Of a stretch of DNA of 64,000 nt, positions 19,898-61,597 are shown in pieces. Positions within the stretch are counted from its first letter, which is position 1, and each line of letters opens with the position of its first letter. Location: contig OZ004614.1 of assembly GCA_963924565.1 (NCBI GenBank), forward strand, positions 10,664,001-10,728,000. The letters run 5' to 3'. This DNA is from Ascidiella aspersa (Eukaryota). Below the pieces are notes generated by a model. That model made no database searches and was not told the origin of the DNA. It saw nothing but the letters and a program-made list of their open reading frames with translations. The translations under genes were made by a program, and so were the position numbers.

Positions 19898-20335
19898 CGC
19901 CGTAATCGTTGGTCATAAAGCAGCTTCCGAGGGGCTAGATCACGGTTGTTATTATAAACACATATGTGTGTGTGTCTTTCATTGATTGATACGGACTGAT
20001 GATCCCCCAATGTGAAGTTGCTTTTACTAACAGAATGTGCAATTATTGGCGTATGGTTGTTTCTCGACTCGCTCCTCTCTGAACCTGCATAGCTCAGTTG
20101 GTAGAGCGACGGTCCCGGCTTGATCGGAGGTTGTGAGTGCGAACCTCACTGCAGGCCAGTTGTTTTTCTGGCTTGCTCTGCTTCCATCATAGATCGACAG
20201 ATTCGGCTAGTCTGCGATGGGTTTTTGGTGTACTATTGATACGGAAGCCGTAATCGTTGGTTATAAAGCAGCTTCCGAGGGGCTAGATCACAGTTATTAT
20301 TATAAACACATATGTGTGTATGTGTCTTTCATTCA
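19898..20335 (+). mobile_element. Non-autonomous retroelement with ~85-bp direct terminal repeats and internal tRNA-like sequence
   Basis: Direct repeats 19899-19983 and 20247-20333; 13-bp TSD TATAGCTACAGGA at 19885-19897 and 20336-20348. Confidence 0.85.
20083..20157 (+). pseudogene. tRNA-derived cloverleaf (not a canonical tRNA)
   Basis: Acceptor ACCTGCA/TGCAGGC; A-box TAGCTCAGTTGGTAGAGC; stem CGGTC/GATCG with atypical loop CCGGCTT; T-arm GTGAG-TGCGAAC-CTCAC; T5 at 20163-20167. Confidence 0.75.
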
Positions 20336-23957: not shown

Positions 23958-24037
23958 ATTTCGTTTTGTGTCGACAATCCTGATTTTCACGAACCGTATT
24001 ACCTCTTTGAAGCTCCCATTTTTTGTCAAAAAGGGCA

Positions 24038-24440
24038 ATGGCAATAAACCAACCCAACTGCGACTGGGTAATCGCCCCTTGGCTGCCGGGCTTTATCGCA
24101 AGTTCAGTCAACAGCAGCGAAACAGAGGCGGAAGACCTGATTCTGGAACATCTGGGAAATTGCCAGGACGCCGTTTTCAGCTATCTTTCCGATACTTACG
24201 TCTACACTCTGATCGCCCTTTACTGCATCATTCTTCCAATTGGATTCTTCGGCAATCTGACCGTGATGTGGCTCATCCTAAGCACTGCCAAACTTCGAAA
24301 GAGCATGAACTTTCTCTTGCTATCGCTGGCAGTGAGCGATTGGATTGCGGCGACCTGTATGCCGTGGACCCTTCATCACAACATCTCGTACGATTACGTG
24401 CTGGGCAAAATGCCTTGTCGAGCCCTGCCGCCCATCCAGG
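24038..24440 (+). CDS. GPCR exon 1 (N-term, TM1-TM3 start)
   Basis: ATG 24038; G|gtgagt, phase 1. Confidence 0.9.
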
Positions 24441-27156
24441 GTGAGTTGTTGCATTTCGAGCACTATACCTGGGTTTAATACATTTGCTTGCTAACGGTAA
24501 AGCTTGATAAACCTTCTGATTCTGGAGAGCTCTCCCAAGAGGGTTTATGTGTGGTTTACATTTACTTTCTTAAATGTTTCAATTACATTAAAAACTGTAA
24601 TTAATTACATCAACTACAATTTTCGGCACTGAAACTTCAATTTTCTTAATATCAATGTATTGAGCCAAAATTTATCAAATCACAATTAGAATTACGCAGA
24701 ATGAAAATGGCTCAATTACATTACAATTACATTAAAACCTGTAATTAATTACATCAATTACAAATTACAATTGATCCAACGCTGATGTGTGGTCACATAT
24801 TTGAAGAGAAACTTTGTTAGGCGTACTGATTTTTGTTAGCCTTTTCTTAGAGATTTTAATTTACTTGTGTCGCAAATTTTTAAAATAAAAATAGAAAGAA
24901 ATAGCTACGAAACGGCTTTATTAAGATAACTGAATGCCCAAACAAGCAAGTGGATTTTATTGTTTTTCGTGAAAAGTTACAGCAAATCAATCCAATTATC
25001 CTGGGCCGCATTTGCATTTAATCTAATGACGTTCTAAGTAAAATACCAGTCGAACATTTCCAATGGTTCGAAATTTTATTTAATGCAGGGTAATCAAGTG
25101 GCACTATATTAAGACAAATTGTTTTAAATTCTCGACAAGCTTTCGCACAACCGTGATTGATCAGGTCCAAGTAGAAAAAAACGGATGAAGCACGGTTGTA
25201 CGAAATCTTGTCGAGAATTCAAAGCAATTTGTCTTTAAGTAGTGCCACATGATTACCCTATTTAGAATTAGGCAAATATGACCATTTGCAAATATTAAAT
25301 AAAGTAATAATTGCGCCAATTCAGAGCGAAAATAAAAACTAATTGAAAAATAGAACGATTATTTGGCTAACAACCAAACGAACATAGTGCTTACTGCTTT
25401 GCCTGTTGTTTTCCTCGTTTTGAAAAATCAAACATAAAATTGTCACGTAGTTCTGCTAAGAATATTTTTTCGCAAAATAACATCTCGACACTTAAAACTT
25501 TTTAATCTAGGTACAGCGGTAATGAGCAGCATTTACGTCCTCGTCCTTATGTCGATCGAGCGCCACCAAGCGATTGTTTTCCCTACCCTCGATCGATTTC
25601 TTAGCTCCAATTTCAGAGTGGCCGTTTGTATCGCCGTTATGTGGATTCTCTCTTTCTGCTTTCAAGTAAGTTTGACGTTGCGGCTATCGTTTATTATTAG
25701 AGGTGACCAAAAGCGCTGTATTAACAGTATTGCCAATGAGGAAATTTCCAGAAAAAAATCTTTGCACGTCAAACGAATACCTGCAGTAATACCTCAATAC
25801 TTACGGACCTCGGCACTTTTGGCAAGAGTTCATCCAGAATGAAGAAACAATTACACATTTTAATTCAACAAAAAACAAGAACGTGGAAAACTAAAACATT
25901 AACGCTAACTTTTTAAAATGCACATGTGTACACTTTCTGGTAATTCGTTAAAATAGAAAGTTAACGGTAAATCTGCCTAAAAAGATGGTTTTAGATGTGC
26001 AAACAAACAATAACTTACAGATACTTAACTATCAAATATAGCCATATCAAAAAGTTGTTCAATGCTGGAGAACTGTTGATTGAAATTTCAAATTAAAGTA
26101 AAAGGTGTACAAAGGTAAAAAGGATAGTAAAAGTGAATCGCAACGAAAAGAATGTTAACAAGCTATGATTTCACTGATATTATAATTTTTTGTGCCAAAC
26201 CCAATCTGGCGAACATAAAATTATGTCATTTACCATCACCTAGCCTAGAACAAGTACGCCAACCAACACATAGAATAATATATAATTTTTTTTCTTCCTA
26301 TCCTGTTTTTCTTTCGCAGATCCCCCAATTAATCGTGCTCGAAGACGTGGTAATTGCCAACGGCACTTTCCCTTGGTTGGCAGAGCAAGACAGCGGTGGC
26401 TACCAGTCGGACAATGGGACACTCTCGCTTATCCAGCCCGGCATTGCTGTCAGCACGGTGGTGAGAGGCTGTATTGAAACCTGGAGCGACGACCAGGCTT
26501 TCTCCTACTCAATTGCAATACTCATAGTGCTCTATGTCATACCGCTCGTGGTGTTAGTACTCATGTACGCCAGAATCGGGTACATGCTCTCGATTCGGCG
26601 GCCTGTCGGTAACTTTCTTCCTGCCAGGGCGGCGGCGCGTTCCCGCAGAAAACGCCGGCTGATGTTGCTGTTTGTTTTGCTCGTGGTTTCGTTCGCCGTG
26701 TTCTGGGGTCCCTTTTTCATCCTGCAATGCTTGAAGGCTTGCCGAGAAGGCCTGTGTAACCCTGAAGTGATTTCCTATCTGCAGTGGCTCGGTCACGCGA
26801 ATGTGGCGCTCAACCCGCTCCTCTATGCAGCTTTGCACGAGCGCATTCGCGAAACCTTTCTCCTAAAGACGAGGGCCGTTCGCCTGCTTTTCGCTAAACT
26901 TTTCTGCGCTAAATGTAGGCCTACAAGTTCTTCCGTGACGCCGCGAAGCCCAAGGCGCTCTGGGGGCGAAGAAATGGCGACCATCAGCAACCCTACAGTT
27001 ATCCAGCGCTCGGCGCCTTCCAGTTTTAATCAAAACGCGGCGAACGCGATGCCCCTGCGTCCACGATCGGCGACGACAAAAAATGGAACTGCCGCCGATG
27101 AAACGCTAAACGGTCTTCAGCTTCCAGGCATCACGCTTTCTGAGGTTTCGGCCTGA
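24038..27156 (+). CDS. Class A (rhodopsin-like) neuropeptide GPCR, QRFP/NPFF-receptor-like, 464 aa
   Basis: join(24038-24440,25511-25665,26320-27156)=1395 nt. Motifs GN (TM1), LAVSD (TM2), ERH (DRY position), W (TM4), ECL2 Cys, FWGP (TM6), NPLLY (TM7). Confidence 0.92.
24578..24784. mobile_element. AATTAC-rich MITE fragment
   Basis: Many CAATTAC units, duplicated block CAATTACATTAAAA-CTGTAATTAATTACATCAA, ends CCAACGCTG. Confidence 0.55.
25087..25259. mobile_element. Inverted repeat (76-bp arms, ~87% identical, 21-nt spacer) with hammerhead-like motifs at the apex (family B)
   Basis: Arms 25087-25162 and 25184-25259. Each arm corrected by the other gives gac CTGATGA a GCAC ggtt GTGC GAAA G CTT gtc. 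Confidence 0.8.
25511..25665 (+). CDS. GPCR exon 2 (TM3-TM4)
   Basis: aatctag| ... CAA|gtaagt, phase 1->0. Confidence 0.92.
26320..27156 (+). CDS. GPCR exon 3 (ECL2, TM5-7, C-tail)
   Basis: ctttcgcag| ... TGA. Confidence 0.92.
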   Translation: MPQLIVLEDVVIANGTFPWLAEQDSGGYQSDNGTLSLIQPGIAVSTVVRGCIETWSDDQAFSYSIAILIVLYVIPLVVLVLMYARIGYMLSIRRPVGNFLPARAAARSRRKRRLMLLFVLLVVSFAVFWGPFFILQCLKACREGLCNPEVISYLQWLGHANVALNPLLYAALHERIRETFLLKTRAVRLLFAKLFCAKCRPTSSSVTPRSPRRSGGEEMATISNPTVIQRSAPSSFNQNAANAMPLRPRSATTKNGTAADETLNGLQLPGITLSEVSA

Positions 27157-29201: not shown

Positions 29202-32200
29202 CTGTAATTTGAGAATAGTCTGGTTGGACTTAAAGACATCGATAAGTAAAAGAAATCGAACGGCTTTACGTTACATTACGTGAAGCATTAAACAAAAAAA
29301 CACCGTTCTGAAGCCGCCACATTGTTCTGAAGATACCTTTAAGTGAAGTGCCCAAGCAACAAGGTTATGTGTTCGTAGCTGAAAAATATTTCTTTTTCGC
29401 AACTATTGGAAAGTTACTTGGTAAAGTTTGAGTTGCACACATTACTTTTTAGCATTTATTCATCGGTACACGTTTAATATGGGTTCTACAGTATGTGCAG
29501 TATGAAAAGATAGTAAAAAAGAGAAATTGTCGTTACAATCACACACATATCTAGTGGACTTTATTTTGGCTAACACATCCGTAAGCATTTTTATGCATAA
29601 CGTTGGAAATAACTATTGTTTACCGGTAATTTAATGTTTATCTTTCCAACATTATACAACAAGGTGCGCCCCACAGTGTGTTTTCGTAAAAGAATTGCGT
29701 AAATAATGACCCAAGTCAATACTTTTTTCATAAAAAAAAAAATGACCCAAGTCAATACTTTTTTCATAAAAAGGTCAAAATTTTTTTTTTTCTGCTTACC
29801 GTCGATAGAGAGACACGTCTTCTCCATGTCTTTGGACGTCACCTTGAAAGAAAACGATTCCTTGTATTTGGGATCGGCGGCTCCCTCTTGTACGAGCGTC
29901 CTTTTCGTCTTTACGACCTTGTGACCTTGGGTGAGCTCGACTCGGACAAAAATGTCTGCCAAAAAGAGATAAAATCTAACAATGCATGCAGTGCAATGCT
30001 ATTTATGATGTGTGAAATAAAAGAGCGGCGCAGCCTTTTTGTCCTATTTATTTTATTCTATTTCTATAGCACCAGCTGACCTTTTTTAAAATTAGCCTAT
30101 AGTTTGATATTAATTTTAAGTCTCACAACACAGCTATCATGTTATGTAAATATTTTGATGTGATATAAATTATACACTATAGGTTAAAGCAGGGGTTCTA
30201 AATGTTTTTGTATGTTTTGCCCTTTTAACAAACATGAATAACAGATTTACCCCCAATATATAAAATTGTGTTCATTTATTAAAATCCAAAGTAACAAATT
30301 ACATCAGGTATCATCAGTTATATAAATGACGTAACAATGAAGTAAGTATAAGAGATAAGGATGTTACCAACAAATTAAAAAAGAGTAACAATTAGCAAAG
30401 CTTAACGTTACCCACACTATATAGACGATAAATAATTAATGACTAGTCAACTAGACTAGCTTCGAATGATCAGCAGTTCAGCTGAACTTAAGGAAAGTAG
30501 GTTACCAATACCTATATATAGCTGCCAAAATGTTTCTGTTCCGGTTATAAATAAAATACACCAAAGCAGTAAATTAAACCTGTTTCTTGCAAGTCCATCT
30601 GGCGAAGATTTTTCGCTTCTAGTATGACCACTGTAAGCCGATCGAGGGCTGGGTTGTAAGCGAGGGAAACATGCAGTTCTCCCAACGAAGTGCCCGTGTC
30701 GCCCGGCTGCAAGTAAAGAAGTTCAGTTTTGTTTGCTTGCTAAGAGAAATGTAAGGTCAACGTCGATTTGATGCAACACGTTGCCTATGTGACAGCAAAA
30801 AACAAGCCCGCAGATTGGTTGGATAAAAATAAAGTCAATCACCCAACTGGCTAAAATTGATGTTATGATAATATAGGCTTTTCCATTCCAGGCATTACAT
30901 GACAGCCCGTGAAATTTGCAACAGCCGTTGATACTGTATCGTACATATGTAAGGACACGCATAATTCACTACGAAAACCAGTCGATCAAAAGCCAAGGAG
31001 TTTGGCGTTCGACATGACTAAATTTGACAACATGTACCACCATAGTACCAAGTCAACCAAGCATATAGCCATAAAAAGTCAGGGTTAGCCTACGATAGCG
31101 ATTATAAAAGTCGTACATGCAATTGCCAAATATTTTACTACTATAATATGGATACTGTTTTCTGGTCTCCCTTTAAGCCTCATAAACAACCAAACTCTAT
31201 CCGGGTAGAACAGGGCGGGAAATTGCTTAAGCTTTCCAGTTTTTTTTTTTTGCTCATGCAAAATTCAATAAACATTTAGCGTTTCACAAACTCACGTGAG
31301 CGATTTCGTCCAGGTCTCTCCACATAACCTCGTCGGCTCGCGATGGGTCGATGTCGTTCAGGCTCACCAGAGCGTGACCGAGCAGATGACGTGTCGACTT
31401 TCTCTTGTCGAGATCGTAAACTGAGAGTCGCAAGGACCGCGACTTGATGTCCGAGTCAGACACCTGAATGCAAAAGTTACGAATGTTTTTGTTTTGGTTT
31501 GGACGTTGGTAGAAGGCCACGTTGTGTAGTAAGTGATCGCGCAGCGTTGTTAACCAGACATTTTGAAATAATTCAAGTCAAAGTGAAGCATTTTCAAAAA
31601 TATTAGGTTCAAGTCATTAGTTGCCCATGTCAAGTCCCAGTCTAGTCATCATTAAAGAAAGTCAACTCGAAGTCAAGTCAATCCTATAAAAGTAAAACGT
31701 TGAATTATTTAAAAAAATTATGAGCAATACCTCAACTTAAAATTAACAAAAATGCAAAATATATCAAGCAAATTGTGTGTTTTTTTTTAATTCAGGTCTA
31801 TAACCCTATTTTATACAATAATTTTAAATAAAAACACTTAATTTCAGCCCAAGTCATTTGACGAATGATTAAAGTCCGAGTCAACTCATTTGACCAAAAT
31901 ACTTCGTTGAAGACGAGACAGAAAAAACAGTGACGTCATTACCACCCTGGAGCCGCAGATCCTATAATATAGGCAACAACTCGACGGGTTTAAATTTGTA
32001 AATCCATAACCAGGTAAAATGTTTGCAAATTTGTATTTAAATTGCTTAATGTTTGAAAGTCAATGCAGTCTCAATTTGAAACCAGAAACTTCGTACAAGC
32101 GCTTATCACAACCGGTTTGCGTAGACCGCGGTTTTCCTGGAGTTTGTTTTTTATTTGGCAGGTAATATATAGCGATATAAGCAAAGTACCAAGTCTGCTC

Positions 32201-53806: not shown

Positions 53807-55874
53807 GACTGTTAAATGTCGTTATTTTATCCCAACTTTGACATACAAAACCAAAGTGTTCCTTTCCTTCTATAAACCAAGTGAATAGAACTTTTAAAAA
53901 GCATGTTTTTAAAAGCACTAAAAACGCTTATTTATATGAAATGGCTTTGCAAAATACCCGTCTAACTTAATCGGTGTCAACCATCCTAATCGTTCTTGAT
54001 GCTGAACTGCTAATTAACACTGCCTTTTTACAATGAAAATTAACTGATTCAACAGGAAATAATCATTCACAAATAAATGTCAAAATCAAACTATTTGCTT
54101 TTTTAACCAATAACATGTTTAATAGGGAGCGATGTTATATATTGTCGTATAAAAACTCATGCTACCGACATCACTACGAACAACAAAATTTTCCTAAAAC
54201 CAATGACAAATTGAATGTGTAAAATATGAAAATTATCCTCGCCCTTACACGTAAATGATGACAATGGCTTCAAATTGGAGCAAATATTCTTCAGAATTTC
54301 CTGTCTTAGGCAAAGTCAGTCACTCAAAAGTTCCAGTCTTTAACTATGACATCATCAGTCTTTTAATTCGAATAAATCATTATGATATTAAAGTACAATT
54401 CCACAGCCATTCTTGCTGTGGCAACAAAACCGGACGAAAGCCACTTAGCAGCAATAATCGTCTTTAGCACGAAGCGCCACAGAATATCTGGAGCCAAAAC
54501 GCGAAACTCTAAAGCCCCTTTCTCGTGGCCACGAGCCGGGAAAAGGCAAACTCTAGGGTTTCTGGGAGACTTAAGAAAGGCGTGAAACCGGATTTCGACT
54601 TGGGTTGAACCGCGCGGCCGCGGGTTTGTTTACTCAAATAAGCGCCTTTACCCGGTCGAAAGTTTTCACGGTCGCACTACAAACAAGCGGCCGGCCGTAT
54701 TGTTGTTGCATATAGAAACAACTCTTTTCAGAAACCCATTGGCAATTATAATTTGTCGTCAATCAAACAGAAAAAGGAACGCAGGGGGTGAAATAAATTA
54801 GTCAATAAGCTAAGCTAAAAAATATATAGCCTGCCTGTATAGGCGGTTGAAAAACAGCATGATTGGCTTGTGCACATGGTTTTATCAAGGGTAATTCACC
54901 ACGCTATATGCTAAGATCTAAAAAAAGTGTTTTCTCTGCTCAGTTGTAATCAGTCAAGTTTGTCGGACTGCTGCGTGGGTTCCCACGCCCATGGTTTTAA
55001 CACTGTACTACTGGGCGTTTATTGTACGAAGCTTTAATTACAATGGGCGAAATTGTGTTACCCTGTAATGAATTTCTGTTTTCAAACGACCTGATTTAAA
55101 CAGGCACGGGATTGCTACTTGGTTGTAACACTATTATCTATATTCATTAAGTTACTTACTGTGACCCGATAAAGCACGGGGTTGTGTGAAAACTTGTCAA
55201 CTTAAAACTACATTTTGTGAACAGTGCCACTTTGTTGTTCAGTTTTTGATTAGGACAAATACGTCGTTTTTCGTTTTTAACTTCTATTTTATTACAATCG
55301 AACTTTGGAAACTATATATACAAATAAAACTACGTGGCAGCGTGATTGAAACGCAAATAAAGTCCGCCTAGCGTGAACTTGCGCATTCATACAGAAGTCG
55401 TGATCGCGCTGCTATATTTTGTGGCTCCACCTTGCATAAACAGTTAATGTTTCCACACCCTAAAACCAATAACACCGCTTGCCTACTTCTTGCCAATACA
55501 CATACGTCATTAGCTTGGGGGAATTTAAAGTTTATGGAAAATGGTGGTAAGACTCTCGTTTAAATTTTAACTGTGGGTATGTGATATAAAAACCTCGCCA
55601 TAAAACGCATTTCACAGTTCGCACCATTTTTTACCCAGTGATGAAAATTAAGGGACACGCTTGCCTTAGACCCGCCTACAAGTTGAGCCAGCTTAAAAAT
55701 AACAAAAAATTAATGCTTTTCTCTTTCGTAATGTTTTAATGCAAGGCATGAACACTACGTTTAACCCATAAAAAAAACTAAAAATGATTGTTTTCCACCC
55801 TGTTTTACAAGCAAATTAAATTTTTTCTACTATGACGCTAATTTACTACCATTACGTCGCCGACCCCTTTAAAG

Positions 55875-56060: not shown

Positions 56061-56376
56061 CTTTAAAATTATGATGTACAGGCATGGTTTTAGAAATAAG
56101 TGGACTTAATTTTGACAAACCATATAGGGATGGTCACAGAAAAACTCGCAAGCCAGCTATCTGACCAGGACACAACAAAAGCAACTCACCCCAAGTAAAT
56201 AACGCGGCAAGATTTAAAAAATCACTTTATACCATAGTGGTTCTTAACGTTTTTCCTTGCTGCATCCCTTTTAAACCACTAACCAATTCTCGCACCTACT
56301 TCTAGAATTGTTTAAATAACAAAACCATTGTAATTTAATTTTTATACAGGTAACTGATAAAACAATACCAAATGTG

Positions 56377-56570
56377 AGATATAATAAGAATATCAAAGCC
56401 CATACAGAAGTAGGTATCATTTTGAACGTTTCGAATAACTCTTTATTCATTTTTCAGATGTTGAAAATGAATAAAGAGTTATTCGAAACGTTCAAAATGA
56501 TACCTACTTCTGTATGGGCTTTGATATTCTTATTATATCTTACTCCAACCTCCAACCATTATGCTCCAAA
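56377..56570. mobile_element. Family A hammerhead-bearing insertion: near-perfect 80/79-bp palindrome plus 30-nt tail
   Basis: Arms 56377-56456 and 56462-56540; flanked by duplicated host sequence CCAAA(A)TGTGAGATA (56368-56381, 56566-56580). Confidence 0.9.
56459..56494 (+). ncRNA. Minimal type I hammerhead ribozyme-like motif (U3-A8 variant)
   Basis: Identical to 16784-16819. Confidence 0.5.
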
Positions 56571-61454: not shown

Positions 61455-61597
61455 ATCTTTTTACTCCACATTATTTTCGGTCACAAGAACTAATTAAAGG
61501 GCGCCATGGTATTTAAAAAATAGCATGGCGAGTTTTTAAATACCATGGCGCCCTTTAATTAGTTCTTGTTACCGAAAATAATTTGGAGTAAAAAGAT
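61455..61597. repeat. Palindrome, 65-bp arms (63/65 identical), 13-nt loop
   Basis: Arms 61455-61519 and 61533-61597. Confidence 0.92.

Follow-up and report, generated by a model that had tools for sequence, protein, structure and literature searches.

Why should an intron of a GPCR gene hold a palindrome with a hammerhead-like motif on either side of its apex? We examined this question in a window of 64,000 nucleotides of the Ascidiella aspersa genome, where the palindrome lies, as the initial annotation had placed it, between the first two 7tm_1 exons of a rhodopsin-family gene, in the first detected intron (Table 1). We find that it is an ordinary decayed stump of a Penelope-like element (PLE), with a layout and a ribozyme type that are already in print. 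Very probably, two 5'-truncated 3' ends of an EN+ PLE stand here head to head in decayed form, a pair most likely built once on site as both ends of the cut target primed reverse transcription of element RNA. Recognizing such hairpins for what they are avoids misfiling them as MITEs, microRNA precursors or mobile ribozymes.

An asymmetric palindrome with two damaged cores

The inverted repeat (25087-25162 and 25184-25259) has arms of 76 nt that are 87% complementary, and the arm length and motifs reported by the initial annotation were both found in the sequence. The element is longer than had been noticed, however, because the right arm runs on into a tail that ends at 25295. The tail-less left arm has its 5' end 13 nt ahead of core C3, a position within the family-B hot spot of arm ends described below, and the hammerhead of this arm differs from that of a young copy at G8, at G10.1 and at one position of helix I. 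In the right arm, truncation falls within the core, whose first remaining base is G5 (25184), so the string CGGATGA probably represents junction filler followed by GATGA rather than a core mutated at U4; helix II and the helix III palindrome of this remnant are altered as well. When folded, neither arm of the window copy forms a hammerhead (z +0.85 and +0.66), and an Rfam scan of the window returned no hammerhead match at E up to 1. No TSD is recognizable at the window copy (the best candidate is 7 nt and misplaced), as in most older copies, and a 10-bp inverted match between its flanks was judged to be AT-rich chance. The window copy is 83-87% identical to young members and both of its cores are broken, and thus the earlier description, old and probably dead, is a fair reading. 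Folded in full, the palindrome forms on either strand a hairpin of about -95 kcal/mol. The same intron holds a further high-copy repeat at 24570-24790 (contig depth ~9000 versus 50).

Table 1 Features of the window discussed in the text
Feature	Position	Strand	Basis
Host rhodopsin-family GPCR, first coding exon detected	24035..24444	+	7tm_1 positions 1-61, E 1.4e-11
Tail-less arm, 5'-truncated pLTR fragment of family-B PLE	25087..25177	-	87% to L056 reference
Damaged minimal type I hammerhead (core 25164-25158)	25131..25170	-	Alignment to intact copy L011
Head-to-head junction, few A-rich filler bases	25178..25183	.	Sequence
Tail-bearing arm, 5'-truncated within ribozyme core (start = G5)	25184..25295	+	83% to L056 tail arm over 113 nt
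Hammerhead remnant without C3, U4 and helix I 5' strand	25184..25215	+	Sequence and alignment
PLE tail, ~34 nt, right arm only	25262..25295	+	Comparison with L056
Host GPCR, next exon	25513..25666	+	7tm_1 positions 68-116, E 2.4e-8
Host GPCR, last exon (5' boundary approximate)	26320..27156	+	7tm_1 positions 138-260, E 9.3e-16
Family-A palindrome (feature to 56575)	56374-56543	.	Dispersed family

Intact copies carry a minimal type I hammerhead

The intact 31-nt core has 315 exact matches genome-wide and none in a reversed control, so the motif belongs to a dispersed family, here called family B, and is not a chance occurrence. An intact CUGAUGA/GAAA core, which the initial annotation had proposed to look for in a family consensus, is present in young copies as well as in these 315 matches. 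In standard numbering, it consists of CUGAUGA, one extra A, a 4-bp helix II closed by G10.1-C11.1, GAA, A15.1-GC-U16.1 and U17, with the predicted cut after U17. Two details of the earlier model need revision. A14 must stay unpaired for the core to form, so the usable helix III palindrome is AGCU (A15.1-GC-U16.1) and not AAGCUU, and helix I, described as 3-5 bp, can form up to 6 pairs in intact copies, two of them G-U. An intact arm is predicted to fold helices I and II at -10.2 kcal/mol; when two intact arms are cofolded, the minimum pairs them through helix II and the AGCU dimer is not favored, a result that is uninformative for a 4-bp helix.

Cervera and De la Pena (PMC4209133) describe dual minimal hammerheads 100-700 bp apart on opposite strands, with most single motifs linked to truncated PLEs. 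Intact family-B cores share the defining features of these minimal PLE hammerheads, namely a conserved type I core, an extra nucleotide at 9/10.1, G10.1-C11.1, a palindromic helix III and dual motifs on opposite strands, and the U3-A8 variant among them corresponds to family A (see below). Helix II is 7-8 bp in the Schistosoma families but 4 bp in the ribozyme predicted here, whose helix I has at most 6 bp. The back-to-back arrangement of the two ribozymes stands, but the cores lie on opposite strands, so a single transcript bears only one of them, locked in the long hairpin. The ribozyme is best seen as a passenger of the pLTR, with no role in the inserted hairpin.

Family B leads into a Penelope-like reading frame

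Many copies among the first 30 exact-core loci have the same sequence ahead of the core, and in L050/L056 this sequence runs into an ORF with RVT_1 and GIY-YIG domains. The L056 ORF (RVT_1, E 3e-10; C-terminal GIY-YIG, E 2.3e-7) contains a YIDD motif and a C-x4-C-x2-C RT-EN linker motif at residue 349, and it ends 181 nt before C3. The sequence of the short palindromes matches that 3' end at 97-100% identity. Because the shared sequence leads into an RT and GIY-YIG ORF, family B is the 3' end (pLTR) of an EN+ Penelope-like element. A Zn-finger-like linker motif marks the Neptune and Nematis groups (PMC8557442), and the C-x4-C-x2-C linker makes family B Neptune/Nematis-like; it is probably a new family of Neptune type. 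Its closest homologues are ~50% identical, and the named ones are uncharacterized turtle proteins. The L056 insertion is itself an inverted pair, with a 165-nt tail arm, a truncated tail-less arm of ~2 kb and a 12-13-bp TSD.

From a DNA search of the genome of the species itself (308 Mb) we obtained 1495 first-look candidates, scored 40 of them and retrieved 25 loci, a set biased to short pairs. Protein searches uncovered a ladder of 5'-truncated copies, the longest of which is 5'-truncated and carries one frameshift. Two such searches (96/469 and 82/82 candidates scored) yielded no full-length master, and no partial tandem with a pLTR upstream of a full ORF was found in the assembly; neither the source RNA nor the junction between an upstream pLTR and the ORF was thus observed. 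About 50 distant RT matches occur elsewhere in the genome, among them a tandem array of another PLE-like RT ORF with 816-aa frames and a 2.67-kb period (G000:C9:23485698-23494871).

A second family shows the same layout

The window also contains a palindrome of another family, family A, which has 774 exact cores genome-wide, a single tail and a 12-bp TSD (L178-L210). The initial annotation had stated that the two palindromes share their layout without sequence similarity, and this holds: no significant DNA similarity was found between families A and B (best match 13 nt, E 0.77), and the single tail and TSDs recur in family A. Its hammerhead core is the U3-A8 variant. None of the first 30 family-A loci had an adjacent PLE ORF, but a wider pair (L208) did: there, the family-A sequence leads into a frame of 248 codons with a GIY-YIG-like end that matches PLE proteins (E 3e-9) and in which no linker Zn-finger was seen. 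From its sequence, family A is the 3' end of a second PLE, unrelated to family B. With A and B as unrelated coding PLE families, their shared layout reflects one mechanism. The earlier proposal of a shared mechanism across several PLE-dependent mini-elements is borne out as to the PLE mechanism but not as to the class of element, since the palindromes of both families lie at the short end of an unbroken series of 5'-truncated coding-PLE insertions.

Two further repeats were observed in the window. At 55157-55263 there is another family-B arm, solo, tailed and older (73%), and a 70-bp palindrome at 61455-61597 is 94% complementary with a 3-nt spacer and has no visible hammerhead core. The latter could represent a MITE, or else a third PLE family truncated downstream of its ribozyme.

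Arm lengths point to two primings

We compiled 70 non-redundant loci (16 duplicates dropped), comprising 48 inverted pairs and 22 solo arms, whose arm lengths range from ~20 nt to 2 kb and whose 5' ends span reference positions 1 to 2030. One tail is present in 40 of the 48 pairs, none in 7 and two in 1. In young pairs, defined as those with both arms at 94% or more, a ~34-nt tail is found on exactly one arm (27/27), a direct repeat of 11-15 bp, mode 12, flanks 23/27 (raw count; target duplications are for the most part 12-13 bp long), and the tail-less arm reaches at least 10 nt further upstream in 14/27 (hand count); older copies have direct repeats of 4-11 bp that are mostly misplaced. Junctions are of 22 types in 25 palindromes, and the three types that occur twice join copies of different subfamilies or copies with the tail on opposite arms; some secondary copying may have contributed to these three. 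Diagnostic sites are shared between the arms of a pair in 22/24 cases, compared to 19.3 in shuffled pairs (p 0.0065; 24 of 38 pairs scorable), in keeping with a single RNA or a single source locus. Junction overlaps of 5-9 nt occur at L012, L023, L056 and L061. Close same-strand cores were present at a few loci (L135, L136), and no arrays were seen. These results demonstrate that the two arms are truncated independently.

Published EN+ PLE insertions combine an inverted 5'-truncated copy with a 30-40-bp tail (PMC8557442; PMC3846280), and the same layout appears in PMC2377424. The complex insertions of Adineta Pen2a (PMC3846280; scheme in PMC8557442) resemble those studied here in their head-to-head pLTRs, one-arm tail, similar TSD length, heavy 5' truncation and an ORF with RT and C-terminal GIY-YIG. 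Unlike in Adineta, the window arms are cut to ~90-110 nt, and neither a partial tandem nor a full-length copy is found in this assembly. For PAc (Poseidon, Anolis carolinensis), PMC11167929 reports two RT start sites that bound the tail, cutting and extension of both strands, and a predicted dimer; the formation of inverted pairs or short arms is not treated in the available part of that paper. The two start sites match the two classes of 3' end seen here, and targets are AT-rich in both systems, whereas the C-x4-C-x2-C linker of family B, typical of Neptune/Nematis, sets it apart from PAc.

In the model that we favor, a staggered cut of ~12 bp would open the target, one target end would prime at the distal RT start site to give the tail arm, and the other would prime at the proximal site to give the tail-less arm. 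The two cDNAs would then stop separately and be joined head to head, with short arms often stopping at the 5' end of the RNA, just upstream of the ribozyme. Two primings, rather than fold-back, are inferred here from the greater length of the tail-less arm in 14/27 young pairs, which simple fold-back of a cDNA cannot give. The family data thus bear on how PLE inverted insertions form.

Self-priming of one strand by fold-back, proposed for the inverted junctions of Adineta Penelope on an antisense template (PMC3846280), would account for the short junction overlaps and for the usual membership of both arms in one subfamily. It is nevertheless unlikely, because fold-back of the first cDNA needs a longer tail arm, and the tail arm is the shorter one both in those 14 pairs, as at L056 (165 nt versus 2 kb), and in the window copy. 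A non-autonomous mini-element, with the short palindrome as the unit that PLE proteins transcribe and retrotranspose, is also quite unlikely. Trans-mobilization via pLTRs has been reported (PMC3846280), the recurrence of three junction types and the sharing of diagnostic sites within pairs speak for such a unit, and short arms are far commoner than long ones: 55 of 94 arms (duplicates removed), taken from the first 100 among the matches listed (315 in total), end within 22 nt of the core. Yet arm lengths grade without a break into the coding region, junctions are mostly unique with the repeated ones crossing subfamilies or tail sides, solo arms are frequent among short copies, and the coding element has this sequence, almost fully identical, as its 3' end. 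Non-LTR retrozymes (bioRxiv 10.64898/2026.07.22.740005) are likewise short PLE-derived sequences with type I hammerheads; that study and a review (PMC6765202) deal with tandem forms, and unlike those head-to-tail repeats the families described here are dispersed head-to-head pairs or solo arms, continuous with a coding element.

The palindromic, dispersed and TSD-flanked copies might also recall a MITE or another DNA transposon with long terminal inverted repeats. Linkage to an ORF refutes this reading, to which we assign almost no probability: what is repeated here is the 3' end of an element that encodes an RT, the tail on only one arm makes the ends asymmetric, TSD length varies from 8 to 15 bp, and solo arms with TSDs exist. 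Neither fixed ends nor an internal structure amplified as a unit, the hallmarks of a MITE or mini-element, were found, as the centers vary. Inverted repeats of a DNA transposon with a defined TSD were the outcome that the initial annotation had set against its own proposal; a TSD of ~12 bp is indeed present, but it points to a PLE and not to a DNA transposon.

Short arms stop just upstream of the ribozyme

In the same survey (first 100 of 315 matches), 46 of the 94 arms have their end 5-14 nt before C3. Between 6 and 14 nt, arms stop at a rate of 0.069 per nt, compared with 0.011 at 15-59 nt, a 6.4-fold ratio (p 2e-12, with bins set after seeing the data). Contigs of two public runs, one of which carries another organism label, show the same depth step and loose ends at this place. 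The edge of the hot spot falls between TC and ATTT, which we take to be an initiator-like motif. At six loci (L009, L011, L016, L121, L139 and L140), short arms begin at the hot spot with an extra T relative to long arms; slippage, either where the RNA starts or when the arms are joined, is a candidate explanation. A splice-acceptor reading of the hot spot was rejected, as there is no AG and no common upstream exon.

The hot spot may mark the RNA start of the element, and family A provides the cleanest evidence for this. Its short arms end at two exact positions, 31-33 nt behind TATATATA, a TATA motif, and the preceding base is G in 10/14 short arms where long arms have T (p 6e-4). G replaces the templated base in 12/15 arms of a palindrome-selected set; at the second position it does so in 4/5. 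Non-templated G from cap copying is known in other retroelements. For family B, a 5' G was counted in 4/10 versus 7/38 by an exact-match script (p 0.21), which counted three point-mutated long arms among the short ones and left some arms out, and in 6/11 by hand.

These observations lead to a more specific proposal, to which we give an even chance. The stumps would be a fossil strong-stop record: at both target ends, the PLE protein would prime at the tail closest to where its own capped mRNA begins and, copying RNA whose ribozyme is uncut, run off the cap. In that case the stumps would reveal where transcription starts and would document double priming in vivo. The competing possibility, which we place a little below even, is that the hot spot arises not from the RNA start but from an RT that stalls at helix I of the ribozyme, or from joining within the U-rich tract. 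Family B gives it some room, since its ends spread over 6-15 nt in a T-rich tract with no clear TATA box upstream and the G excess counted by script is not significant. However, the stops fall after helix I has already been copied, and the exact end positions of family A, with G for the templated base at a set distance from a TATA motif, argue for an RNA start. A literature search confined to main texts, and mostly to papers outside subscription, returned no paper stating the short-palindrome or cap-G idea of an RNA start. Stop positions may in this way give PLE transcription starts from genome sequence alone.

RNA reads from family B and from the GPCR locus

We identified 412 family-B reads in 6% of one RNA run with the same species label, of which 83% continue into unrelated sequence. 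Starts and ends of these 412 reads show no pile-up, and none falls at the cut site. Mismatch places in the reads are A>G (24), T>C (16), G>A (12) and C>T (11), and several of the A>G changes are absent from DNA contigs of another sample. A>G changes cluster at L059:2440-2540, where most are likewise absent from the other-sample DNA contigs. The mismatch pattern suggests A-to-I editing, the cluster may reflect hyper-editing of inverted pairs, and intronic inverted pairs may be substrates for A-to-I editing. At the GPCR locus, run X6 gave 12 partial reads, which derive from other repeats; none lies on the palindrome and none joins exons.

Elsewhere in the window, a tRNA-like match at 20083-20157 (40.9 bits, above the gathering score) is a candidate tRNA gene or tRNA-derived SINE, and the minus strand at ~29600-31600 contains exon-like frames that, by eye, resemble a synaptotagmin-type C2-domain protein.
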